Positions 16,488 to 28,628 of a stretch of DNA of 38,260 bases are shown here, in pieces (position 1 is the first letter of the stretch; each line of letters opens with the position of its first letter). The notes under the pieces are model-generated. The model ran no database searches, was not told the origin of the DNA, and saw only the letters and a list, made by a program, of their open reading frames with translations. This DNA is from Acidimicrobiia bacterium. GTDB lineage: Bacteria; Actinomycetota; Acidimicrobiia; IMCC26256; PALSA-610. The position numbers and the translations under genes were made by a program. Where the stretch lies: positions 1 through 38,260 of the forward strand of contig DATBAK010000054.1 of the NCBI GenBank assembly GCA_036271555.1. Reading direction: 5' to 3'.

Positions 16488-17915
16488 GTGCTCTTCCCGA
16501 CGGTCACGTTCGCGATCTTCTTCTCGATCGCGCTGCCGGCGAGCTGGCTGCTCATGCCCCGCGGAACCCGGTGGCGGCTCTTCATCATCGCCGCGAGCTA
16601 CTTCTTCTACGGCTACTGGAATCCCAAGTTCGTGTTCCTCATCGTCGCGTCGACGGTCTGGAACCAGTTGTGGGGCACGGCGATCCACCGGCTGCGCGAC
16701 GAGCGCGCGCGCCGCATCGCGCTCACGATCGCGATCGTCGGCGATCTCGGTTTGCTCGGCTACTTCAAGTACGCGCAGTTCTTCGAGGTCTCCGCGCGCA
16801 ACGCGCTCGTCCACGCGGGCATCCACCTGAGCCCCGACGTCCTCCGGGTCACGCTTCCGATCGGCATCTCGTTCTTCACGTTCCAGGCGATGAGCTACGT
16901 CATCGACATCTACCGCCGGAACTTCGAGCCCGTCGGCTTCCTCGACTTCGCGGTCTACATCTCGTTCTTCCCGCACCTCATCGCGGGACCGATCGTGCGC
17001 GCGAGCGAGTTCCTCCCACAGCTGCGCGAGAAGAAGGACCCGCGCAAGGTCGACGCGGGCCGGGCGTTCTTCCTCATCATGTCGGGCCTCTTCAAGAAGG
17101 TGGTGCTGGCCAACTTCCTCGCGACAACGCTCGTCGACAAGGTCTTCACCCTGCCGGAGCTGCACAGCGGTCGCGAGATCCTCTTCGCGATCTACGGCTA
17201 CGCGGTGCAGATCTACTGCGACTTCAGTGGCTACACCGACATCGCGATCGGACTCGCGCTGCTGCTCGGATTCCGGTTCCCGCAGAACTTCAACGCGCCC
17301 TATTCGGCGGAGTCGCTGCAGGATTTCTGGCGCCGCTGGCACATGACGCTGTCACGCTGGTTGCGCGACTACCTCTACATCCCACTCGGCGGTAATCGCG
17401 ACGGCGAGTGGTCGACGTACCGCAACCTCATGCTCACGATGGTCATCGGCGGGTTGTGGCACGGCGCGGCGTGGACGTTCGTCGCGTGGGGCGCGATCCA
17501 TGGCGGCGCGCTCACCTTCGAGCACATGCGCGCGAACCGACGCACGCGCCTCGGCATCGACCCGCCACCCGACACGATGCGAAGACGCATCGTGCGGCGC
17601 ATCGTGACGTTCCACATCGTGTGCTTCGCCTGGGTCTTCTTCCGCGCCGACACGTTCCACACCGCAGGGGTGATCCTCACGCGCCTGTTCGTCGGGTGGA
17701 CGAGCCCCGCGCCGCTGCTCACCGGCGGTGTGCTCCTCGCGATCGCGGTCGGCATCGGGATGCAATACGTACCGAGCAACGCGATCGAGCGGGCGCAGGT
17801 GATGTTCTCGCGACTCTCGCCCGTGCAGATGGGCGTCGCGATCGCGTTCGGACTCCTCCTCATCGACGCGATGGGGCCGCAGGGCGTCGCGCCCTTCATC
17901 TACTTCGCCTTCTGA
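16488..17915 (+). CDS. MBOAT-family membrane O-acyltransferase (AlgI/DltB/PatA-like)
   Basis: 475 aa polytopic; FWRRWHMTLSRWLRDYLYIPLGGNR and WHGAAW..GAIHG conserved MBOAT His motifs. Confidence 0.85.
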   Translation: MLFPTVTFAIFFSIALPASWLLMPRGTRWRLFIIAASYFFYGYWNPKFVFLIVASTVWNQLWGTAIHRLRDERARRIALTIAIVGDLGLLGYFKYAQFFEVSARNALVHAGIHLSPDVLRVTLPIGISFFTFQAMSYVIDIYRRNFEPVGFLDFAVYISFFPHLIAGPIVRASEFLPQLREKKDPRKVDAGRAFFLIMSGLFKKVVLANFLATTLVDKVFTLPELHSGREILFAIYGYAVQIYCDFSGYTDIAIGLALLLGFRFPQNFNAPYSAESLQDFWRRWHMTLSRWLRDYLYIPLGGNRDGEWSTYRNLMLTMVIGGLWHGAAWTFVAWGAIHGGALTFEHMRANRRTRLGIDPPPDTMRRRIVRRIVTFHIVCFAWVFFRADTFHTAGVILTRLFVGWTSPAPLLTGGVLLAIAVGIGMQYVPSNAIERAQVMFSRLSPVQMGVAIAFGLLLIDAMGPQGVAPFIYFAF

Positions 17916-17918
17916 GCC

Positions 17919-19034
17919 ATGACGACGACGACCGATCCCGAACCGACGGAGCCGACAGAGCCGGCCGAGACGCCGAGCGACATCACACGCACGCGCCCGC
18001 CGACCGAGCGGCGCACCGCGCGCCGGCCCGTCCCCGCGGGCCACGCGATCCTCGCGATGCTCATCGCGTTCGCGGTCGGCACGCTCTTCAACGCGGACTC
18101 GATGCTGCAGACCGCGCAGACACAGCGACTCGGCACGTGGCGCCACCGCGTCGGCGTCGACATCATGAAGCCGGTCCACTCCGTCTCGTCGTTCCTGCGC
18201 CTCGATCGACCCCGCCGCGCGCTCGACAAGGAGCTCGGCAACGGCCCGCCGGCGATATCGAAGCAGGACGGCCGGCGCGCGTCCTCCGACCCGTTCGCGA
18301 CGTCGCCGACCACCACGACCGTCGCGCACGGCCCGACGACGACCGCGAACGCGCATCGGTACCAGGCGCTCACGGTGTCGCGCGCGCACCCCGCGACGAT
18401 CTTCGTCGCCGGCGACTCGCTGTCGTTCGAGTTCGGCACCTCGCTCTATCGGATCGCGGCGGGTGAGCACGTGTACAAGGCGGCGGGCAACGGGACCGTC
18501 GACTTCCGCGTGTCCTCGGGACTCACCCGTCCCGACTACTTCAACTGGCCCGCCGCGCTCGGGAACGACGTGCAGCGGTTCAACCCGCAGATCGTCGTGC
18601 TCATGCTCGGCAGCAACGACAACCAGACGATCGCCGCGCCGAACGGTCACACCTACGCGTTCGGCAGCGCCGGTTGGAAGACGGAGTACCACCGGCGGGT
18701 CGGCGCGGTCATGGATCAGCTGATCGCGGCCAACCGCTGGGTCGTCTACGTCGGCGTGCCGATCCTCGCGACGCGCGACGACCAGTGGCCGATCATCAAC
18801 GAGGTGATCGAGCAGGAAGCCGCCAAGCGGAGCCGGGCGGTCTACATCGACAGCTTCACGCTGTTCCAGGATCCGAACGGCAAGTACACGCAGTACCTGC
18901 CGAACTCGAAGGGCCAGCTCGTCGAGGTCCGCACCGCCGACGGCATCCACTTCCAGCGCGCGGGCGGCGACCTTCTCGCCCGGCGCACGCTGCAGGTCAT
19001 GGAGCGAACGATCGTCCACGTTTCGCGCAGGTAG
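17919..19034 (+). CDS. Membrane-anchored SGNH/GDSL-family hydrolase (PatB/AlgJ-like acyltransferase partner)
   Basis: ATG 4 nt after MBOAT stop; N-terminal disordered Thr/Pro/Glu tail then TM (AILAMLIAFAVGTLF); IFVAGDSLSFEFG (block I Ser), LGSNDN (block III), DGIHF (block V). Confidence 0.75.
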   Translation: MTTTTDPEPTEPTEPAETPSDITRTRPPTERRTARRPVPAGHAILAMLIAFAVGTLFNADSMLQTAQTQRLGTWRHRVGVDIMKPVHSVSSFLRLDRPRRALDKELGNGPPAISKQDGRRASSDPFATSPTTTTVAHGPTTTANAHRYQALTVSRAHPATIFVAGDSLSFEFGTSLYRIAAGEHVYKAAGNGTVDFRVSSGLTRPDYFNWPAALGNDVQRFNPQIVVLMLGSNDNQTIAAPNGHTYAFGSAGWKTEYHRRVGAVMDQLIAANRWVVYVGVPILATRDDQWPIINEVIEQEAAKRSRAVYIDSFTLFQDPNGKYTQYLPNSKGQLVEVRTADGIHFQRAGGDLLARRTLQVMERTIVHVSRR

Positions 19035-19142: not shown

Positions 19143-20630
19143 ATGAGCAAATTTGCGGATCACATGAGCGATGCGGACGCGCTCATGTGGAACATCGAGA
19201 AGGACCCGGTGCTGCGGTCGACAATTGTCGCCGTAGGGCTGCTCGACCGCGCGCCCGACTTCGAGCGTCTGCGCCGCCGGCTCGCGCGGGCGAGCATCGC
19301 GATCCCGCGCCTGCGCCAGCGCGTGCTCTCACCGCCGCTGCGGTTGGGTCCGCCCCGCTGGGCGCACGAGCCCAACTTCGACCTCGACTTCCACCTCCGT
19401 CGCGTGCGCGCGGTGAAGCCCGGCGACCACCGCCAGCTGCTCGAGCTGGTCGCGCCGATCGCCCAGGCGAGCTTCGACCGCGCCCGCCCGCTGTGGGAGC
19501 TCACCATCGTCGAGGGCCTCGCCGGTCACCGGGCCGCGGCGGTCATGAAGGTGCACCACTCGGTGACCGACGGCGTCGGCGGCATCGACCTGCTGACCCA
19601 GGTCGTCGACCTCGAGCGCGACGCCGCGGAGCCCGCGCCCTTGCCCGAGCCCGACGCCGCGACATCGCTCGGCGCGCTCTCGTTGCTGCGCGATTCGCTG
19701 CAGCACAGCGCGCGCCGCGGTCTCGGCATCTCGCGACGCGTCCCGGCGATGCTCTCGCAGGCCGTCGTCGAGACGGCGCGCGACCCGCTGCGCGCCGCGG
19801 CCGGCGCGCTCGACACCGGCCGTTCGATCGGGCGCATGCTCGCACCCGCGACGGCACCGATGTCGGACGTGCTCGGCGAGCGCAGCCTCGGCCGCCGGCT
19901 CGACACGTTCGAGGTCCCTCTCGACGACCTGAAGCGCGCGGCCAAGGCGGTCGACGGCAGCGTGAACGACGCGTTCGTCGCCGCGGTCGTCGGCGGCCTC
20001 ACGCGCTACCACTCGCACCACGGGTCGGCGATCGGCGAGCTCCGCATGACGCTGCCGATCAACCTGCGCACCGCCGAGCACGACTCGGGCGGCAACCAGT
20101 TCGCGCCGGCGCGCTTCCCGGTGCCCGCGTCGATCGAGGATCCTGCGCAGCGCATGCGCGCGATCGGCGCACTCGTACGGGGCTGGCGCGCGGAGCCCGC
20201 GCTGCGCATGACCTCGACGCTCGCGGGCGTGCTGAACCGCCTGCCGACCGCAACCTCGACCGCGCTGTTCGGCAGCATGCTCAAGTGCGTCGACTTCGTG
20301 ACGTCGAACGTGCCCGGCGCGCCGATCCCGGTGTTCCTCGCGGGAGCCGAGGTCGACGGCTTCTACGCCTTCGCACCCCCGTCGGGCGCGGCGCTCAACG
20401 TCACGCTCGTCTCGCACTGTGATCGCTGCTGCATCGGGATCGTCACCGACACCGCCGCGGTCGCCGACCCCGACGTCCTCGTCGACTCGCTGCGCTCCGG
20501 GTTCGACGAGGTCTGTGCTCTTGGGTCGGGCTCGCACGCTTCGCCCTCCTCCACGCCTCCCTCGACGAGTCGGGCGGGCCGCACGGCGACCCGCCCGCCG
20601 TCGCAAGACCGTTCGACGCGTTCTGAATGA
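19143..20630 (+). CDS. Wax ester synthase/acyl-CoA:diacylglycerol acyltransferase (WS/DGAT)
   Basis: 495 aa; HHSVTDGVGG active-site motif; last ~35 aa (GSGSHASPSSTPPSTSRAGRTATRPPSQDRSTRSE) are encoded by a repeat copy. Confidence 0.8.
   Translation: MSKFADHMSDADALMWNIEKDPVLRSTIVAVGLLDRAPDFERLRRRLARASIAIPRLRQRVLSPPLRLGPPRWAHEPNFDLDFHLRRVRAVKPGDHRQLLELVAPIAQASFDRARPLWELTIVEGLAGHRAAAVMKVHHSVTDGVGGIDLLTQVVDLERDAAEPAPLPEPDAATSLGALSLLRDSLQHSARRGLGISRRVPAMLSQAVVETARDPLRAAAGALDTGRSIGRMLAPATAPMSDVLGERSLGRRLDTFEVPLDDLKRAAKAVDGSVNDAFVAAVVGGLTRYHSHHGSAIGELRMTLPINLRTAEHDSGGNQFAPARFPVPASIEDPAQRMRAIGALVRGWRAEPALRMTSTLAGVLNRLPTATSTALFGSMLKCVDFVTSNVPGAPIPVFLAGAEVDGFYAFAPPSGAALNVTLVSHCDRCCIGIVTDTAAVADPDVLVDSLRSGFDEVCALGSGSHASPSSTPPSTSRAGRTATRPPSQDRSTRSE
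20523..20605 (+). repeat. Dispersed intergenic repeat, type II copy
   Basis: gggtcgggctcgcacgcttcgccctcctccacgcctcc...gtcgggcgggccgcacggcgacccgcccgccg inside the 3' end of the WS/DGAT ORF. Confidence 0.65.
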
Positions 20631-22150: not shown

Positions 22151-23281
22151 GTGACCGACACGAGCACCGAGACCGCGATCAGCCTGCCGCCGGAGTTGCG
22201 GCCGTCGGACGGGCGCTTCGGGTCGGGGCCGTCGAAGGTGCGCCAGGACGCGATGGTCGCGCTCGCCGACGCCGCGCCGCGCTACATGGGCACGAGCCAC
22301 CGGCGCCCCACCGTGCGCAACGTCGTCCGGCGCGTGCGCGACGGGATGTCCGCTCTGTTCGCGCTGCCCGACGGCTACGAGGTGTTGCTCGGCAACGGCG
22401 GCTCGACCCTGTTCTGGGACGCGGCCGCGTTCGGACTCGTCGAATGGCGCGCGCAGCACCTCGTGTGCGGCGAGTTCTCGTCGAAGTTCGCGGCAGTGAC
22501 GCGCGCCGCGCCGCACCTCGAAGCTCCCGATGTGATCGAGAGCGCGCCCGGCGCCGCGCCCACGGCGCGCGCGAACGCCGACGTCGACGCGTACTGCTTC
22601 CCGCACAACGAGACGTCGACCGGCGTGATGTTGCCGGTCGCCCGTCCGAGCGACGACGGGCTCGTTCTCGTCGACGCGACCTCGGGCGCGGGTGGCCTGC
22701 GCGTCGATCCGCGTGCGTTCGACGTCTACTACTTCGCGCCGCAGAAGTGCTTCGCAGGCGATGCCGGCATCTGGATCGCGCTGTGCTCGCCCGCCGCGAT
22801 CGAGCGGATCGAGCGCATCGCGTCGTCCGGCCGTTGGGTGCCGCCGAGCCTCGATCTCGGCATCGCGCTCGAGCAATCCCGGCTCGATCAGACGTACAAC
22901 ACCCCCGCGCTCGCGACGCTCTTCCTGCTCGCGGATCAGCTCGAGTGGATGCTCGCGCAGGGCGGCCTCGAATGGGCTGCCGGTCGCTGCGACCGCTCGG
23001 CGGCGACGATCTACGACTGGGCGGATGCCGGAGCGCTGACGACACCCTTCGTCACCGACCCTGCGCTCCGGAGCCGCGTGACGGCCACGATCGACTTCGA
23101 CGGCGTCGACGCCGCGCAGATCGCGTCGACGCTGCGCACGAACGGCATCATCGACGTCGAGCCCTACCGCAAGCTCGGCCGCAACCAGCTACGCGTCGGC
23201 CTCTTCCCCGCGATCGAGCCCGACGACGTCGCCGTGCTCACGCGCGCGATCGACTACATCGCCGAGCGCCTCGCGGGTTGA
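22151..23281 (+). CDS. serC: Phosphoserine aminotransferase (actinobacterial SerC type)
   Basis: 376 aa; GNGGSTLFWDAA, FAPQKCF, TYNTPALATLFLL motifs of class-V aminotransferase SerC. Confidence 0.85.
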   Translation: MTDTSTETAISLPPELRPSDGRFGSGPSKVRQDAMVALADAAPRYMGTSHRRPTVRNVVRRVRDGMSALFALPDGYEVLLGNGGSTLFWDAAAFGLVEWRAQHLVCGEFSSKFAAVTRAAPHLEAPDVIESAPGAAPTARANADVDAYCFPHNETSTGVMLPVARPSDDGLVLVDATSGAGGLRVDPRAFDVYYFAPQKCFAGDAGIWIALCSPAAIERIERIASSGRWVPPSLDLGIALEQSRLDQTYNTPALATLFLLADQLEWMLAQGGLEWAAGRCDRSAATIYDWADAGALTTPFVTDPALRSRVTATIDFDGVDAAQIASTLRTNGIIDVEPYRKLGRNQLRVGLFPAIEPDDVAVLTRAIDYIAERLAG

Positions 23282-23312: not shown

Positions 23313-24746
23313 GTGAGCGGCGCGCTCCCCGACGGATTGGTCGCAGTGGTCAAACGCGACTGCCCTACCTGCACGCTCGTCGCTCCTGTTCTGCGCGACC
23401 TCGCGGCGCGCGGCGCACTGCGCGTCTACACGCAGGACGACCCGTCGTTCCCGCCCGGCATCGACGCGTGTGACGACACCGAGCTCGAGGTGTCGTTCGC
23501 GCTCGCGATCGACACCGTGCCGACGCTGCTGCGCGTCGAGCGGGGTGCGGTCACGAATCGCACCGAGGGCTGGTCGCGCGCGCGGTGGGAGGCACTCACC
23601 GGCTTCGCGGGCCTCGGCCCCGACCTCCCCGACCTCCGACCCGGTTGCGGCTCGCGCACGCACGACCCCGACGTCGCCGACGCGCATGCGATCGCGACGA
23701 TGGCGCCCCGGCTGCAGGCGCGTCCGGTCGAGCTCGGCGCCGCCGAGGACGACCAGGAAGCGATGTTCGCCCGGGGCTGGACCGACGGCCTTCCGGTCGT
23801 CCCGCCGACGGTCGCCCGCGTCGCGCGCATGCTCGCGGGCACGACGCGCGCGCCGGACGACATCGTCACGGTCGTGCCGCCCGACCTCGTCGAGTGCACG
23901 GTCGAGAAGGTCGCGATCAACGCGGTGCTCGCGGGCTGCCGACCCGAGTACCTGCCGGTGGTGCTGGCCGCGGTCGAGGCTGCGTGCACCGATCAGTTCA
24001 ACGCGCACGGGCTGCTCGCGACGACGTGGTTCTCGGGCCCGCTCGTGATCGTCAACGGTCCGATCGCGCGCGCGATCGGGATGAACTCCGGCGGCAACGC
24101 GCTCGGTCAGGGCAACCGCGCGAACGCGACGATCGGACGCGCGCTGCAACTCGTCGTCCGCAACGTCGGCGGTGGCCGTCCCGGCGAAGTCGACCGCGCG
24201 ACGCTCGGCAACCCCGGCAAGTACACGTTCTGCTTCGCCGAGGACGAGGCGGGTTCGCCGTGGGAGTCGCTCGCGGTCGAGCGCGGTATCGCGCGCGGAC
24301 GCTCGGCCGTCACGCTGTTCGCTGCGGAAGGCGTGCGCGGCGTCGTCGACCAGCTGTCGCGTGAGCCCGAGTCGCTCGCGCGCAGCTTCGCGGCCTGCCT
24401 GCGCACCGTCGCGCACCCGAAGCTCGCGATGGTGTGGGACGCGGTGCTCGTCGTCTCACCCGAGCACGCACGCGTCTTTCGCGAGGCAGGCTGGTCGAAG
24501 GCGCGTCTGCGGGAGGCCCTGAGCGCCGAGCTCCTGCTCGCGGGCGACGACATCGTCGCGGGCGCGCACGGCATCGCCGAGGGACTGCCGGCCGGCTTCG
24601 CGGGAACGTCGATCCCGAAGTTCCGCGATGGCGGGCTGCTCATCGTCCACGCCGGTGGCACCGCGGGCATGTTCTCGGCCATCATCGGCGGGTGGGCGAG
24701 CGGCGCGGTCGGGAGTGAGCCAGTGACCCGGGAGGTCGGTACGTGA
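23313..24746 (+). CDS. Thioredoxin-like (CPTC) N-domain fused to a large uncharacterized domain; candidate partner of UGSC protein
   Basis: 477 aa; N-terminal VAVVKRDCPTCTLVAPVL...IDTVPTLLRV thioredoxin-fold CxxC; remainder has normal composition but no motif I can name; GGGAGG RBS for downstream gene inside its 3' end; stop overlaps downstream GTG (GTGA). Confidence 0.55.
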   Translation: MSGALPDGLVAVVKRDCPTCTLVAPVLRDLAARGALRVYTQDDPSFPPGIDACDDTELEVSFALAIDTVPTLLRVERGAVTNRTEGWSRARWEALTGFAGLGPDLPDLRPGCGSRTHDPDVADAHAIATMAPRLQARPVELGAAEDDQEAMFARGWTDGLPVVPPTVARVARMLAGTTRAPDDIVTVVPPDLVECTVEKVAINAVLAGCRPEYLPVVLAAVEAACTDQFNAHGLLATTWFSGPLVIVNGPIARAIGMNSGGNALGQGNRANATIGRALQLVVRNVGGGRPGEVDRATLGNPGKYTFCFAEDEAGSPWESLAVERGIARGRSAVTLFAAEGVRGVVDQLSREPESLARSFAACLRTVAHPKLAMVWDAVLVVSPEHARVFREAGWSKARLREALSAELLLAGDDIVAGAHGIAEGLPAGFAGTSIPKFRDGGLLIVHAGGTAGMFSAIIGGWASGAVGSEPVTREVGT

Positions 24747-25279
24747 CCACGACGACCGTCGCGTCCGACGCCCGCGTGCTGCTCGATCCCACGTCGGAAC
24801 GGGCCCCGGCGGCGCGCGAGCGCGCGGCGCGGCCCGCGTCGATCGAGGGCGCGACCGTCGGCCTGCTCGACATCAGCAAGCCGCGCGGCAAGGTGTTCCT
24901 CGATCGCGTCGAGGAGCTGCTCGTCGCGCGCGGTCTGAAGGTCGAGCGCTACAGCAAGCCGACGTTCACGAAGCCTGCGCCCGCGGATCTACGGCACGAG
25001 ATCGCGACGAAGTGCGACCTCGTGATCGAAGCACTCGCCGACTGAGGATCGTGCACGTCGTGCAGTGTGCACGACACCGTGAACCTCGAGGCCGCCGGTG
25101 TGCCGATGGTGTTCGTCGCGTCGACCGAGTTCGTCGCGGCCGCCGACGCGCAGTCGCGCGCGCTCGGCGCCGACCCCGCGCGTGTCTTCGTCGCGCATCC
25201 GATCCAGGATCGAACCGACGACGAGCTGCGCGCGCTGGCCGACGCCGCGATCGACGACCTCGTCGCCGCGCTGCGCTGA
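24743..25279 (+). CDS. UGSC-motif selenoprotein candidate (178 aa with Sec at codon 101; in-frame TGA 25043-25045)
   Basis: ORF 24743..25045 ends ...VIEALAD-TGA and continues in the same frame as GSCTSCSVHDTVNLEAAG...DDLVAALR to TGA 25277; the 25067..25279 track ORF is this same frame; U-G-S-C followed by TSC; stable hairpin 11 nt after the TGA. Confidence 0.65.
25057..25075 (+). promoter_or_regulatory. SECIS-like stem-loop downstream of in-frame TGA
   Basis: GTCGTGCA-GTG-TGCACGAC, perfect 8-bp stem/3-nt loop starting 11 nt after TGA; local GTGCAC repeats allow alternative extended folds; resembles apical UGCA..UGCA stem of E. coli fdhF SECIS. Confidence 0.45.
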
Positions 25280-25299: not shown

Positions 25300-26277
25300 T
25301 CACTTCGACGCGTCGGCGATCGAGAACGCGCCGACGTTCGTGAAGCTCAGGCTCGTCACTCCCGACGCGCAGTCGCCGGTGGTCGGCGTCGCGTGCAGAA
25401 CCACCTCGAGAGTCGCGCCGGCGTCGGCGCCACTCGTGATCACGCCATGGAGACTGAGCTCGTAGGGATCGTCGCGGTTGTTCGTCGACGCGAGGTGCGC
25501 GCGCTTCAAGATCGACACGAAGTGGTTCGACCAGTCGATCTCGAGCATCCCGAAGAACCGCTGTTGCTTGCCGGGTGGGCACGTCACCGACGACGCATCG
25601 AGCGCGCCGATCACCGTGGCGGCGGGCGCGGTGTCGGCGGCCTGACAACCCGACACCTGGAACGATTCGAAGTGCAGGTGCTGGGCCGCGGCGCCGGCAA
25701 CGAGCCCGGGGCTGACCGTCGCGGACGCGGCGACGTCGTCGCAGCTCGCGTACGGGCCGCCGATCGTCATCGCGTTCGTGTTGTGCATCGTGATCGCGCC
25801 GACTCCGGCGCTGCAGTCACCGGTCTTGGGCACGAGGTCGAGGCGCACGCGCAGTGTCGCCCCCGTCTGGCTGCCACCGGTGACGCGACCGTCGAGCCGC
25901 ACTTCGAACCGGTCGTCGGGATTGCCGGTCGACGCGACGCGGGCGGCCCGGAGGTACGAGGTCGCGCCGTTGTTCCAGTCGATCTGCAAGGAGCCGCGCA
26001 GCCGGTCGGTCGGCGCGAGCGGACACGAAGCGGACGGGCTCGTCAGCGTTCCCGTTGCGGTCGCGGCCGCGCCGCCGACGTGGTCGCACTTCGAGACGCG
26101 GAACGTGTGCAGGTGGAGCTCGACGGGGCCGGCCGTCGCCTGCCACTTCGGCGTGAGCTGCGCCGCGCCGACGACCGACTTGCAGCGGGTCGGCGGGTTC
26201 GCAACCGATCCCGCGGGCGCGGCCGCGAGCGCCAACGCCGCGGTCGCCAGCATCGCCACGAGCCCGGTCCTCGCCAC
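25300..26277 (-). CDS. Secreted protein with internal tandem duplication of a ~140-aa 4-Cys domain (unknown function)
   Basis: Signal peptide LVAMLATAALALAAAPAGSVA; two repeats each with VELHLHTF/QHLHFESF, LQIDWNNGATSYL/LEIDWSNHFVSIL, GATLRV/GATLEV and 4 Cys; start GTG 26277 preferred (ATG 26331 lies inside a repeat copy). Confidence 0.55.
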   Translation of the reverse strand: MARTGLVAMLATAALALAAAPAGSVANPPTRCKSVVGAAQLTPKWQATAGPVELHLHTFRVSKCDHVGGAAATATGTLTSPSASCPLAPTDRLRGSLQIDWNNGATSYLRAARVASTGNPDDRFEVRLDGRVTGGSQTGATLRVRLDLVPKTGDCSAGVGAITMHNTNAMTIGGPYASCDDVAASATVSPGLVAGAAAQHLHFESFQVSGCQAADTAPAATVIGALDASSVTCPPGKQQRFFGMLEIDWSNHFVSILKRAHLASTNNRDDPYELSLHGVITSGADAGATLEVVLHATPTTGDCASGVTSLSFTNVGAFSIADASK

Positions 26278-26292
26278 CCGCCCGGTGTTCGA

Positions 26293-26395
26293 TGGTCGGG
26301 CTCGCACGCTTCGCCCTCCTCGTCGCCTCAACCGTCGCGTCCTACGCGAGCGAGCGTAGGGACCACCACGCTAAGTGGCGTCGGAGCGTGAGGCC
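26293..26395 (+). repeat. Dispersed intergenic repeat, type II copy with internal hairpin CCTACGC-GAGCGA-GCGTAGG
   Basis: tggtcgggctcgcacgcttcgccctcctcgtcgcctcaa...; hairpin at 26341-26360. Confidence 0.65.
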
Positions 26396-26402
26396 AAACC
26401 GG

Positions 26403-27233
26403 TCAGGCGGCGGCGACGACTCCGGCGGCGGTGAGACGAGCCGCGCCCGGAAACGGCCAGAGCGGCCCGACGAGCAGCAGCGACTCGCGGGTCGCGCGCG
26501 CGACGAACGGTTCGAGCCACGCGTTCGCGGCCGCAACGTCGACGTGGCCGCCCGAGTGCGGCACGGTCGCGAGCTGGAGCGGGTTCAGCGCGAGGTGTCC
26601 GAGGAGCACCGCGTGCGCGCCGCCGGACTCGACATGGACGACCGCGTGTCCGGGCGAGTGTCCACCGGTGCGCTCGAAGCGAACGGCGTCTGTGAACGAG
26701 TGTTCGTCGTCGACACCGTCGACGACACCGTGAGCGATGAGCGCGCGCAACGCGTCGAGGCCGCCGACCGCGTCCTGTTCCTCCAACCACGCGAGCTCCG
26801 CGCGGGTCAGCACGACGCGCGCGTTCGGGAACAGCGGTCCCCACGCACCGTCGGGCTCGACCGCGGCGGCCATGCCGATCCCGTCGAGATGGGTGAGCAC
26901 GACGGCATCGACGCGCTCGGGCGCGAAGCCCGCGGCGCGCATCGCGGCGAGGAACGCGTCCTGGTGCGCGATCGCCTCGGGCCCGGTGCGGAGGAACGGA
27001 TCGGCCGCGCCGCAGGGATCGACGAGCAGCACGCGTCCCTCCGACTCGATGACCCACCCGACCTGGCCGACGAGCGCCCGACCGGCTTCGTCCACCCACG
27101 CCGGCCGGGCCCATGCGTGCGCATCGATCTGCGCGGGCGTCACGCTCACGACCGCGGGATCGAGCGCGATGTCGAAGTACGGGACGCGCGTGAGGTTTGC
27201 CGAGCCGATCTCGAACCGTGCGACGTCGTTCAC
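26403..27233 (-). CDS. MBL-fold metallo-hydrolase (non-canonical motif 2)
   Basis: 276 aa; VLLVDPCG, VVLTHLDGIG (HxHxDH position reads THLDGI), GGHSPGH, later His residues. Confidence 0.6.
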   Translation of the reverse strand: MNDVARFEIGSANLTRVPYFDIALDPAVVSVTPAQIDAHAWARPAWVDEAGRALVGQVGWVIESEGRVLLVDPCGAADPFLRTGPEAIAHQDAFLAAMRAAGFAPERVDAVVLTHLDGIGMAAAVEPDGAWGPLFPNARVVLTRAELAWLEEQDAVGGLDALRALIAHGVVDGVDDEHSFTDAVRFERTGGHSPGHAVVHVESGGAHAVLLGHLALNPLQLATVPHSGGHVDVAAANAWLEPFVARATRESLLLVGPLWPFPGAARLTAAGVVAAA

Positions 27234-27254
27234 GGCCGACCAGTGTGCCCGCGA

Positions 27255-27851
27255 TCAGGAGGCGGGGTCGGCGAGATATCCGCGCCCGACCGCGTCGGCG
27301 ACGAGATCGCGCGCGGTCGCCCACAACGCCGCCGATCCGGACGCGATCGACTCGTTGACCGCGAGCACTTGGTCCGCGGTGACGTCGTGCTCACGCCAGG
27401 TCGCGCCACCCGAAGCATGGTTCAGCATGAGCGGCTGCAACCGGTCGAGTGCGCGGGCGAAGCGAGCGTCGGCACTCTCGCCCACCTCGTACTCCAACCA
27501 GAGGTCTTGCAGCTCGCGTCCCTGCTCGCCCGGCAGCAGCCCGAACAGCCGCTGCGCGGCACGCGCCTCGGCTTCCTGCTTCGCGGCGCGCCCTTCGACG
27601 TCGTAGAGGAACGTGTCGCCGGCGTCGATCTCGACGAGGTCGTGCAGCACGAGCATCGCGAGCACGCGCAGCCGATCGACGGGCTCGTCGGCGTGCTCCA
27701 TGAGCACGAGCGCCATCAGCGCGAGATGCCACGAGTGCTCGGCGGAGTTCTCACGCCGCGACCCGTCGACGAGGTAGCTACGGCGCTCGACGTGCTTCAG
27801 CCGATCGGCTTCGAGCACGAAGCGCAGTTGCGAGATGAGGCGATCGTCCAT
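27255..27851 (-). CDS. HD-domain phosphohydrolase (YfbR-like 5'-deoxynucleotidase family)
   Basis: ATG 27851; RRENSAEHSWHLALMALVL...LHDLVEIDAGDTF HD motif; upstream part of 508-aa track ORF is junk. Confidence 0.75.
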   Translation of the reverse strand: MDDRLISQLRFVLEADRLKHVERRSYLVDGSRRENSAEHSWHLALMALVLMEHADEPVDRLRVLAMLVLHDLVEIDAGDTFLYDVEGRAAKQEAEARAAQRLFGLLPGEQGRELQDLWLEYEVGESADARFARALDRLQPLMLNHASGGATWREHDVTADQVLAVNESIASGSAALWATARDLVADAVGRGYLADPAS

Positions 27852-27923
27852 GGTCCGATTCTGTCCCGTCGGTCCGTGGGCGCGGAGGTGCGCGCCGCCG
27901 GGACGCGCGGTCAGACTGTCGCC

Positions 27924-28628
27924 ATGCTGCTGCTGCACGAGCTCCACACCGTCATCGGTCCGAAGGAAGACGAGTTCGAGGCCGCCTATCGCGACGGCTG
28001 GCTCCCCAAGCTCGCCGAGTCCGACGACGCCCGCCTCCTCTGGTTCCTGTTCCTCGCGCACGGAACCGGACGCGCGTACCAGATCACGACGATCACCGGA
28101 TTGCGCGACGGCGCCGCGTACGAACGACTCGCGCAGCGCGTGCAGACCGGCGACCTGCGTTCGTGGGCGGCCGACCTCGACCAGTGCCGGCACGAGGTGA
28201 AGGGCAAGCTCCTGATGTTCGCGGAGTGGTCGCCGATCCAGGAGTTCGACCTCACGACCGTGCCGACCGACGGGCGCGAGCACGACCAGACGCTCTACAT
28301 GGAAGACAGCGCGTGGCCGTACGAGGGCATGCTCGACGACTACCTCGAAGCCGCGCACTCGCACTACGCGCCGAGCCTCGAGCACCGCACCGAGCGGTCG
28401 CTCATCCAACTCGACGCGGTGTTCCAAGCCGCGCTCGGCGCGCCCCGTCGCCGTGAGGTGATCCTCTGGCAGAAGGTGCTGTGGCCCGAGCGGCTCCCGA
28501 TGCTCTTCACCAAGGATCTCCCGAAGGACATGAAGGCGAAGGGCACGTGGATGAACGACGCGCTCAAGGTGCGCGACGACTGGGAGAGCCGCCTCCTGCG
28601 GACCGCTACCTGGTCCCCGCTCGATTAG
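27924..28628 (+). CDS. Tandem NIPSNAP-like (dimeric alpha+beta barrel) domain protein
   Basis: ATG 27924; 234 aa of normal composition at the tail of a 778-aa track ORF; two halves each resembling NIPSNAP (LHELHTVIGPKEDEFEAAYRDGWLP...EWSPIQE and ...EGMLDDYLEAAHSHYAPSL...ATWSPLD). Confidence 0.55.
   Translation: MLLLHELHTVIGPKEDEFEAAYRDGWLPKLAESDDARLLWFLFLAHGTGRAYQITTITGLRDGAAYERLAQRVQTGDLRSWAADLDQCRHEVKGKLLMFAEWSPIQEFDLTTVPTDGREHDQTLYMEDSAWPYEGMLDDYLEAAHSHYAPSLEHRTERSLIQLDAVFQAALGAPRRREVILWQKVLWPERLPMLFTKDLPKDMKAKGTWMNDALKVRDDWESRLLRTATWSPLD

Follow-up and report, generated by a model that had tools for sequence, protein, structure and literature searches.

A thioredoxin-fused protein of 477 amino acids and a selenoprotein of the UGSC family are encoded side by side in an Acidimicrobiia bacterium, and comparison across genomes places the two in a near-obligate gene pair. 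The pairing, together with the thioredoxin fusion, points to a selenium enzyme, as yet uncharacterised, that is driven by thioredoxin. We found the pair in a 38,260-nucleotide stretch of DNA, referred to here as the window, for which a preliminary description had suggested a two-gene redox module. A conserved module of this type is borne out by neighbourhood analysis across genomes, which revealed co-occurrence in both directions, fusion of the two genes and links to the thioredoxin system. The UGSC-containing family has been known from 2005–2008 as a selenoprotein family of unknown function (Zhang & Gladyshev metagenome surveys), and the 2008 GOS paper mentions a "UGSC/Unknown_1 fusion" that probably corresponds to the fusion of UGSC to the large domain described below. 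The further suggestion that the module was previously undescribed thus fails for UGSC itself and stands for its partner: our literature search turned up no account of either the partner family or the module.

Architecture of the two genes

The 477-residue protein is encoded on the plus strand at 23313–24746, from a GTG start codon, and its open reading frame contains every peptide quoted in the preliminary description (VKRDCPTCTLVAPVL, TVPTLLRV, GWTDGLPVVPPT, LGQGNRANATIGRALQLVVRNVGGGRPG and a Gly-rich C-terminus). It is a real, conserved gene; a homologue search yielded at least 8000 matches, the closest among the matches listed having E=4e-294, and 6031 matches were obtained when all 50%-identity representatives were searched. 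Its translation, its homologues and an AF2 model (pLDDT 87.4, pTM 0.85) divide the protein into a thioredoxin-fold domain, a Cys-containing linker and a large unannotated domain. RefSeq names partners of this type "hypothetical protein" or "thioredoxin family protein".

The N-terminal domain (aa ~7–96; 23331–23600, plus strand) has the beta-alpha-beta-alpha-beta-beta-alpha order of the thioredoxin fold. In sequence and AF2 model, the CPTC active-site motif (Cys17 and Cys20, residues 17–20; 23361–23372, plus strand) immediately precedes helix 18–22, and the cis-Pro loop TVPTLL (xVPT type) occupies residues 68–73, ahead of strand 3. Curated thioredoxin-family models do not capture this N-terminus, which matches nothing in Pfam at E≤0.1; the sole NCBIfam match of the protein is to a TrbB-type thioredoxin (E=0.015, 15 bits against a 132-bit cut-off), and more distant homologues match Redoxin, AhpC-TSA and ResA models. 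Nor does any PDB sequence match the 477-residue protein. Across related loci the motif reads CPTC in 85, CETC in 13, CATC in 8, another CxTC in 5 and CPTS in 1, with both cysteines kept in 111 of 112. The N-terminal thioredoxin fold with a CxxC pair originally proposed is confirmed, and its motif is conserved. Within the linker, Cys112 of the motif PGCGS (23646–23648, plus strand) is a cysteine in 115/115 aligned thioredoxin-fused homologues and is visible in profile A1.

The large C-terminal domain (aa ~146–477; 23748–24743, plus strand) carries the motifs GWTDGLPVVPPT, NAVLAGC, VNGP, RANATIGRA and PEH. Its remoteness from any described family, noted at the outset for the ~330–380 residues that follow the thioredoxin domain, was upheld by profile searches and structure prediction. 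Neither the 477-residue protein nor profiles A1, A2 and A6 gave a Pfam, NCBIfam or PDB sequence match to the domain, in the large domain and 60 of its relatives the region is matched by no model in either Pfam or NCBIfam, and comparison of aa ~146–477 with PDB structures returned no structural neighbour. The domain also lacks any motif recognisable as binding a cofactor or nucleotide. It is nonetheless present in more than 6000 clusters at 50% identity and is duplicated in proteins of ~715 aa. About 20 polar or Gly/Pro positions in its 330 aa are near-invariant. Conserved across 150 representatives are two cysteines (95% and 91%) along with D158, R269, N271, R276, E310 and H385, a set consistent with an active site. 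The first cysteine, Cys209, lies in an AGC motif just ahead of helix 211–224 (23937–23939, plus strand) and is a candidate catalytic or redox residue, being Cys in 131/138 of the 50%-identity representatives and at 126/128 loci. The second, Cys307 of the KYTFCFAE motif (24231–24233, plus strand), is kept in 121/133 representatives and 133/137 loci.

The partner gene overlaps the end of the first by 4 nt (GTGA). The TGA stop of the 477-residue gene (24744–24746) overlaps the GTG start of the next reading frame (24743–24745), and a GGGAGG ribosome-binding site (24730–24735, plus strand) lies within the 3' end of the upstream gene, 7 nt from that GTG. An overlap of 4 nt is shared by 88 of ~130 loci and supports the coupling of the two genes that the preliminary description had proposed, here taken as translational. 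The downstream gene (24743–25279, plus strand; 178 codons including Sec101) ends at the stop 25277–25279 after read-through of an in-frame TGA at 25043–25045. Joined across this codon with U replaced by C, its product scores 158.7 bits against Pfam PF24696 (cut-off 25; profile positions 2–170 of 172) and 160.1 bits against NF041046 (cut-off 125), and both models also match each half; by these scores it is a clear member of the UGSC family. The in-frame UGA (plus strand) is the predicted selenocysteine of D-U-G-S-C-T-S-C-S-V-H-D, and the aligned position is TGA in 84/86 loci and Cys in 1. The GOS survey counted 255 Sec against 21 Cys forms of UGSC. On these counts the family strongly prefers Sec to Cys.

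Downstream of the UGA, a SECIS-like hairpin can be drawn at 25046–25087 (plus strand), with a core stem of 25059–25063 and 25069–25073 and an apical loop, AGUGU; the hairpin starts 16 nt after the UGA. Its energy of -21.5 kcal/mol is not significant relative to shuffled sequences (z = -0.18). The core pairs are kept in 157–158 of 158 unique homologous sequences, a figure confounded by conservation of the coding sequence: covariation is nearly uninformative here, since conserved residues, S-C-S-V-H-D, are encoded by the two arms. Rfam at gathering thresholds gave no match in the window, and hence no annotated SECIS element or riboswitch, and a tRNA search of the window found none, tRNA-Sec included.

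The UGSC protein models as a flavodoxin-like alpha/beta domain of 5x(beta-alpha) units and not as a simple CxxC-type carrier with a thioredoxin fold. A UGSC profile found no significant match among PDB sequences. Matches to the family in databases are mostly fragments of ~100 aa that stop at the UGA; public gene calls mostly truncate or split UGSC proteins and UGSC fusion proteins at the Sec codon. Sec forms occur in the cultured hosts Geodermatophilus obscurus DSM 43162 and Pseudonocardia bannensis DSM 45300, and Cys forms, suited to expression in E. coli, are carried on Arthrobacter, Roseovarius and Natrinema plasmids.

Pairing, fusion and interchangeable redox modules

Pairing of 477-residue-type genes with UGSC is close to obligate. 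Starting from the large protein, UGSC lies directly downstream on the same strand in 86/87 loci; starting from UGSC, the large gene ends at the UGSC start in 57/60 testable metagenome loci. Exceptions are L048, L119 and L145. Both 80-locus samples consist of the best-scoring matches and are for that reason biased towards the same subfamily; the count from the large protein takes in standalone-domain homologues of ~40% identity from other phyla. Hosts are mostly aerobic Actinomycetota, Pseudomonadota and Chloroflexota, and include haloarchaea.

In other lineages the two proteins are one. Among 30 representatives with an N-terminal extension unmatched by the thioredoxin domain of the window, 18 have UGSC fused to the large domain. 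Variovorax encodes a full-length Cys-type fusion of 545 aa, with a TrxR-like flavoprotein two genes upstream, and Vibrio a fusion of 561 aa whose UGSC domain is degenerate and lacks the CGSC motif. In many such fusions the called gene stops short at the Sec codon. Compared with the UGSC family as published, the family seen here is almost always paired with, or fused to, the large domain.

These data bear on whether the two genes are mere neighbours with no functional tie, the TGA being a true stop between two small reading frames. Gene callers do annotate two small frames in most assemblies, and the SECIS-like hairpin is energetically unexceptional for its GC content. On the other side stand the bidirectional co-occurrence, the fusions and the conserved 4-nt overlap; moreover, a single HMM match continues across the TGA, Cys homologues exist as single chains, and the TGA keeps to one alignment column in 84 loci. 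Taken together, the comparative sequence data refute this reading, which we regard as having next to no chance of being correct.

The module that precedes the large domain varies. Besides thioredoxin-like domains, AhpC/Redoxin/ResA-like domains occupy this position, P0174 has a ferredoxin:thioredoxin reductase beta domain, and P0266 bears a genuine TrxB (TIGR01292, E=3.6e-99). Where thioredoxin is not fused, thioredoxin-system genes can adjoin the pair, in the order trxB-trxA-large-UGSC on the Arthrobacter plasmid and large-UGSC-trxB in Roseovarius. At the standalone loci L003–L007 and L175–L177, no thioredoxin or thioredoxin reductase gene was found within 6 kb. Known thioredoxin fusions (PilB of Neisseria, with its Trx-MsrA-MsrB domains, AhpF-AhpC and NTRC) are similarly built, a CxxC donor domain being fused or adjacent to the enzyme that it reduces, and in other lineages of the UGSC system TrxB, AhpC-like or FTR-like domains take the place of the donor. 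Two features distinguish the present system. The large domain, in the place of the acceptor, falls outside the known thioredoxin-dependent families (Msr, Prx, ArsC, PAPS reductase and RNR) and has no structural neighbour in the PDB, and the protein, unlike known thioredoxin fusions, also needs a separate selenoprotein partner.

Wider gene neighbourhood

Directly upstream of the 477-residue gene lies serC (22151–23281; TIGR01366, E=7e-159), and the preliminary description had connected the module to it through serine, the precursor of Sec-tRNA. The arrangement occurs in the window and at L001, and at 4 of 80 genome loci overall; serC is absent from the other 76, from L002–L007 and from every standalone-type locus examined. 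Where synteny is shared it is confined to close Acidimicrobiia relatives, which also have WS/DGAT and MsrPQ-like genes in common. In bacteria, Sec is made directly from Ser-tRNA(Sec), a route not known to need a dedicated serC or phosphoserine transaminase. Of the Sec-specific genes, selA and selB do recur; they directly follow the pair in ~10/80 genomes and form the largest neighbour clusters (8/80 loci each, 10 loci by tblastn), ahead of an SDR (7/80). We therefore rejected a module tied to serC; the neighbourhood counts largely refute the link, and a functional tie to serine or Sec-tRNA precursor supply is now very improbable.

Around the thioredoxin-fused branch, the 80 genome loci contain no conserved third gene and give no clue to the substrate. 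Neighbours of the standalone branch, among which CaiB/BaiF CoA-transferase, acyl-CoA synthetase, enoyl-CoA hydratase and TRAP/TTT transporter genes recur, suggest a carboxylic acid or an acyl-CoA.

A proposed selenocysteine-dependent reductase

On balance, we favour the view that the 477-residue protein and UGSC make up, as its two subunits, a single cytoplasmic reductase based on thiol and selenol chemistry. We infer that they form a physical complex, and the direction of electron flow, the cysteines that take part and the substrate are inferred in the same way. Electrons would pass from NADPH through thioredoxin reductase to Cys17 and Cys20 of the fused thioredoxin domain, and the invariant linker residue Cys112 might relay them to a redox centre. 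This centre would combine Sec101-x-x-Cys104(-x-x-Cys107) of UGSC with the Cys209/Cys307 pocket of the large domain, and a small substrate would be reduced there. The large domain would thus act as the substrate-binding or catalytic partner, with the selenol supplied by UGSC. A logic like that of protein B of the glycine, sarcosine, betaine and proline reductases is proposed by analogy, UGSC being weakly similar to the Sec region of protein B.

Much of the same evidence could be read with UGSC alone as the enzyme, for instance a Sec peroxidase or small-molecule reductase, and the 477-residue protein as no more than a recycling reductase or docking scaffold dedicated to it, in the way that AhpF serves AhpC; the large domain would then bind UGSC instead of substrate. 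Pairing and fusions fit this equally well, UGSC carries the sole Sec and the full UxxCxxC..HD motif, and it is the large-domain protein, not UGSC, that bears the fused thioredoxin and the interchangeable reductase modules. Nevertheless, a 330-aa domain with ~20 near-invariant positions, two cysteines and conserved Arg, Asp, Glu and His residues, present in over 6000 clusters and itself duplicated in the ~715-aa proteins, looks more catalytic than adaptor-like, and known thioredoxin-dependent recyclers need no such domain. We consider this reading unlikely. Still less probable is a role in handling metals, metalloids or iron-sulfur clusters, in which U-G-S-C-x-x-C-x-x-H-D would not be a catalytic redox couple but would provide ligands that bind, traffic or detoxify such species or help to assemble a cofactor, and the thioredoxin domain would keep these ligands reduced; the NifU-like C-terminal extension found on some UGSC proteins could point that way.

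The two-subunit reductase that we favour resembles the GrdB/GrdE and PrdB/PrdA systems in having a UxxC selenoprotein, with the motif probably at a beta-strand-to-helix turn, and a larger partner subunit. Sec is strongly preferred to Cys in these selenoproteins and in UGSC alike. In the known reductases electrons come from the thioredoxin system, and trxB-trxA sit in grd operons, an arrangement comparable to that on the Arthrobacter plasmid. Sequence likeness between GrdB/PrdB and UGSC is weak and centred on the Sec residue. TIGR01917 aligns UGSC residues 87–142 with GrdB profile positions 333–387 at E=0.0042, with 16 bits against a curated cut-off of 602, and hhalign of UGSC with a GOS PrdB/GrdB profile gave a weak match (P=4.7e-4, probability 32%, 107 columns) in which the Sec columns align, compared with P=0.17 and 0.45 for negative controls. 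The two families may thus share a Sec-bearing beta-alpha unit, in the order hydrophobic strand, U-x-x-C, helix and LExxGI(P/S)TV strand. The Pfam GRDB model (PF07355) has no UGSC match at E≤10, and models of GrdE/PrdA-type (pyruvoyl proprotein) partners do not resemble the large domain. UGSC is also far smaller than GrdB/PrdB, the system lacks equivalents of GrdA, GrdC and GrdD, and its mostly aerobic hosts, with haloarchaea among them, contrast with Stickland fermenters. UGSC may, then, be a minimal relative of selenoprotein B of glycine/proline reductase.

Extending this comparison, we tentatively raise the possibility that the large domain and UGSC constitute a new class of thioredoxin-driven, Sec-dependent reductase, related in evolution to the Stickland glycine/proline reductases and with a partner fold not seen before. 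Such an enzyme would act in aerobic bacteria of soils, fresh waters and the sea, and in some haloarchaea, and its substrate would be one for which no need of selenium is yet known. If true, this would explain both the rank of UGSC as one of the most abundant selenoproteins in the environment and the position of selA-selB directly behind it in some genomes. The widespread large domain, with neither a Pfam or NCBIfam model nor a structural neighbour, exposes a large gap in domain databases. With a near-obligate partner, or fusion partner, that is wired to the thioredoxin system, the orphan selenoprotein UGSC becomes the subject of a defined, testable hypothesis of a two-subunit enzyme.

The two genes and their surroundings

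The gene for the 477-aa protein occupies 23313..24746 on the forward strand, and all peptides quoted for it in the preliminary description are present in the translated ORF. Its TGA stop (24744-24746) forms a 4-nt junction with the GTG start (24743-24745) of a UGSC selenoprotein gene, which continues in frame on the same strand to 25279; a GGGAGG lies 7 nt 5' of this start, and so the GTGA overlap and the ribosome-binding site inside the upstream gene are as first described. Translation of the UGSC ORF reads through an in-frame TGA (...EALAD-TGA-GSCTSCSVHD...), and the halves on both sides of it match PF24696 and NF041046. When joined with U replaced by C, they pass both cut-offs (158.7 bits versus 25 for PF24696 and 160.1 bits versus 125 for NF041046). 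The window is chromosomal, with 71% GC; the genome most similar to it is an Acidimicrobiia MAG (85% identity). Searching the window returned no tRNA, no Rfam match, and neither selA nor selB.

On the upstream side, the 477-aa gene adjoins serC (TIGR01366, E=7e-159). A link of the module to serC and serine, put forward initially, is effectively excluded, with serC upstream in only 4 of 80 genome loci. Two genes upstream of the module lie an MsrP/YedY-like molybdopterin oxidoreductase (PF00174, 20627-21334, +) and a cytochrome b561/MsrQ-like membrane protein (PF01292, 21408-22067, +). The homologous locus L001 has the same order (WS/DGAT, MsrP-like, cytochrome b, serC, module), and this arrangement is therefore local synteny among close relatives. 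Further upstream, an MBOAT-family O-acyltransferase followed by a DUF459/GDSL-like protein (16488-19034, +), a pair resembling polysaccharide O-acetylation genes, precedes a WS/DGAT wax-ester synthase (19143-20630). Directly 3' of the module, a convergent 343-aa ORF (25300-26331, -) has a signal-peptide-like N-terminus, what looks like two internal copies of a ~165-aa repeat, and no Pfam match. Beyond it, within ORF 26292-28628, is a ~235-aa protein (MLLLHELHTVIGPKEDEFEAAYRDGWLPKL...RTATWSPLD; ~27900-28628, +) with relatives at three further Acidimicrobiia loci, each encoded by the first gene 3' of UGSC (the cluster with L082_p1+).

The partner family and its pairing with UGSC

The bulk of the 477-aa protein had been said to fit no nameable family, and searches of Pfam and NCBIfam indeed placed the protein in no family, nor did the PDB hold a sequence relative. 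An AF2 model built with 48 homologues as input is confident (pLDDT 87.4, pTM 0.85). Homologues, recorded as "hypothetical protein" or "thioredoxin family protein," form at least 8000 clusters at 90% identity and 6031 representatives at 50% identity with E<=1e-3. Their large C-terminal domain (~330 aa) occurs alone (~345 aa), duplicated (~715 aa), behind N-terminal Trx, AhpC, Redoxin, or ResA-like domains, behind a ferredoxin:thioredoxin-reductase beta-chain domain (representative P0174), ahead of a genuine C-terminal thioredoxin reductase (P0266; TIGR01292, E=3.6e-99), or with UGSC at its N-terminus.

The preliminary description asked whether UGSC genes and this family are consistently paired, and at the loci examined they nearly always are. 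Loci were collected from the large protein by exact protein look-up (7), from genomes of different species (80), and from further standalone-type examples lacking a fused Trx domain (3). A UGSC ORF lies immediately 3' on the same strand in 86 of the first 87. At the Sec column, 84 of these have TGA and one has Cys; a contig end cuts the last one. The three standalone-type loci are likewise paired. Searching metagenomes in reverse with the UGSC C-terminal motif yielded 60 loci with enough upstream sequence, and the large gene ends at the UGSC start in 57. The unpaired cases, three metagenome loci and L048, appear real after an HMM check. The 4-nt overlap recurs in 88 of ~130 loci, and chance adjacency of two unrelated ORFs is effectively excluded. 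Both 80-locus samples comprise best-scoring matches and therefore lean to the window's own subfamily; standalone, fused, and archaeal examples carry the association well beyond it. On a Natrinema plasmid the order is inverted, with UGSC before the large gene.

In other lineages, UGSC is fused N-terminally to the large domain. PF24696 was found in 18 of 30 representatives whose N-terminal extension is unmatched by the window's Trx domain, and many of these entries begin immediately past the Sec residue, a sign that gene callers cut them at the UGA. Variovorax boronicumulans has an annotated, intact Cys-type fusion of 545 aa. A 561-aa fusion in Vibrio europaeus has a degenerate UGSC domain without the CGSC motif; on plasmid locus L172 (2959-4668 and 5281-6966), it lacks Cys at the Sec position, neighbors aconitase X, DUF126, and enolase, and may be a non-redox offshoot. 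In public gene calls, splitting or truncation at the Sec UGA is systematic for both UGSC and its fusions (P0217, P0220, P0231, P0239, P0260, and similar representatives), affecting most database UGSC matches, and in some calls the UGA is translated as Trp (ADWGSC), Arg (ADRGSC), or Gly (ADGGSC); the domain architectures that databases show for this family are consequently misleading.

Genes near the pair

Clustering the neighbors of the 80 genome loci revealed no conserved third gene. Trx-system genes can adjoin the pair where Trx is not fused: a plasmid of Arthrobacter sp. ERGS1:01 carries trxB-trxA-large-UGSC, with trxA and the large gene overlapping, and Roseovarius has large-UGSC-trxB. In Variovorax, a TrxR-like flavoprotein lies two genes 5' of the fusion. 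The most recurrent neighbors, the Sec-synthesis gene selA and the Sec-decoding gene selB, directly follow UGSC in ~10 of the 80 loci (L020, L029, L033, L034, L040, L045, L046, L058, L064, and L069; selB only in L038), in hosts including Marinobacter, Halopseudomonas, Oxalobacteraceae, and Rhodoferax, which suggests that UGSC is one of the main clients served by the Sec machinery of these genomes. Recurrent near standalone-type pairs are CaiB/BaiF-type CoA-transferases, acyl-CoA synthetases, enoyl-CoA hydratase, acyl-CoA dehydrogenases, and TRAP/TTT/MFS transporters, hinting that the standalone branch may act on a carboxylate or an acyl-CoA.

A candidate thioredoxin-driven reductase

The best-supported reading is that the module would be a thioredoxin-driven two-subunit reductase, in keeping with the two-gene redox module proposed at the outset. 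This reading draws on the strong preference for Sec, on the modules joined to the large domain (Trx, TrxB, FTR-beta, or AhpC-like), on the fact that this domain is almost always partnered with or fused to a UxxC selenoprotein, and on its two conserved Cys and accompanying charged residues. Counted across 150 representatives, with denominators varying by column, the large domain conserves D158 (118/119), P161 (119/119), Cys209 (131/138), R269 (137/144), N271 (141/143), R276 (142/143), Cys307 (121/133), E310 (130/133), and H385 (100/109). A main rival instead makes UGSC alone the enzyme and the large protein only its recycling partner. Within the branch that has the fused Trx domain, 111 of 112 sequences carry CxTC as the Trx motif, and linker Cys112 (PGCGS) is present in 115/115. 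Distant Trx-fused members of the homologue alignment (P0188, P0190, P0202, P0137, P0186) replace CxxC with monothiol CPTS or CPTT and still keep the linker Cys of the PGC motif, which may thus be a resolving or relay thiol.

The UGSC motif, D-U-G-S-C-x-x-C-[SC]-x-H-D, hardly varies. Few close relatives have a true Cys form; such forms are present in haloarchaea and in cultured isolates, where plasmids carry them. The second main rival casts the U/C/H/D motif as a metal or Fe-S cluster binder, prompted by NifU-like C-terminal extensions (PF01106, at or just above threshold) on some UGSC proteins (L007, 7425-7919; L168, 6063-6878), which could indicate Fe-S or metal chemistry. Similarity to selenoprotein B of glycine and proline reductases (GrdB/PrdB) is weak but specific, a lead rather than family membership: UGSC residues 87-142 align with positions 333-387 of the GrdB profile TIGR01917 (NCBIfam; E=0.0042, far below cut-off), and a PrdB/GrdB-like profile built from sequences in the GOS supplement can be aligned to that of UGSC across 107 columns, with the two Sec columns falling together (hhalign P=4.7e-4, probability 32%, against P=0.17 and 0.45 in two comparisons with unrelated controls). 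Glycine and proline reductase operons carry trxB and trxA, and protein B follows the same logic as the proposed two-subunit reductase. In such a reductase, reducing equivalents would flow from TrxR into the Trx domain and onward, possibly by way of Cys112, to a selenosulfide/disulfide centre that UGSC and the large domain would share and that would reduce a substrate.

The suggestion of a previously undescribed system holds in part. UGSC is already a known family, though its function is not, and a "UGSC/Unknown_1" fusion mentioned in 2008 is probably this same fusion; for the partner family, without a model in Pfam or NCBIfam, and for the module, we found no description in the literature. We file the module with Trx-linked Sec oxidoreductase systems; we see a substantial, though less than even, chance that it represents a new class of enzyme with a novel fold at its base.
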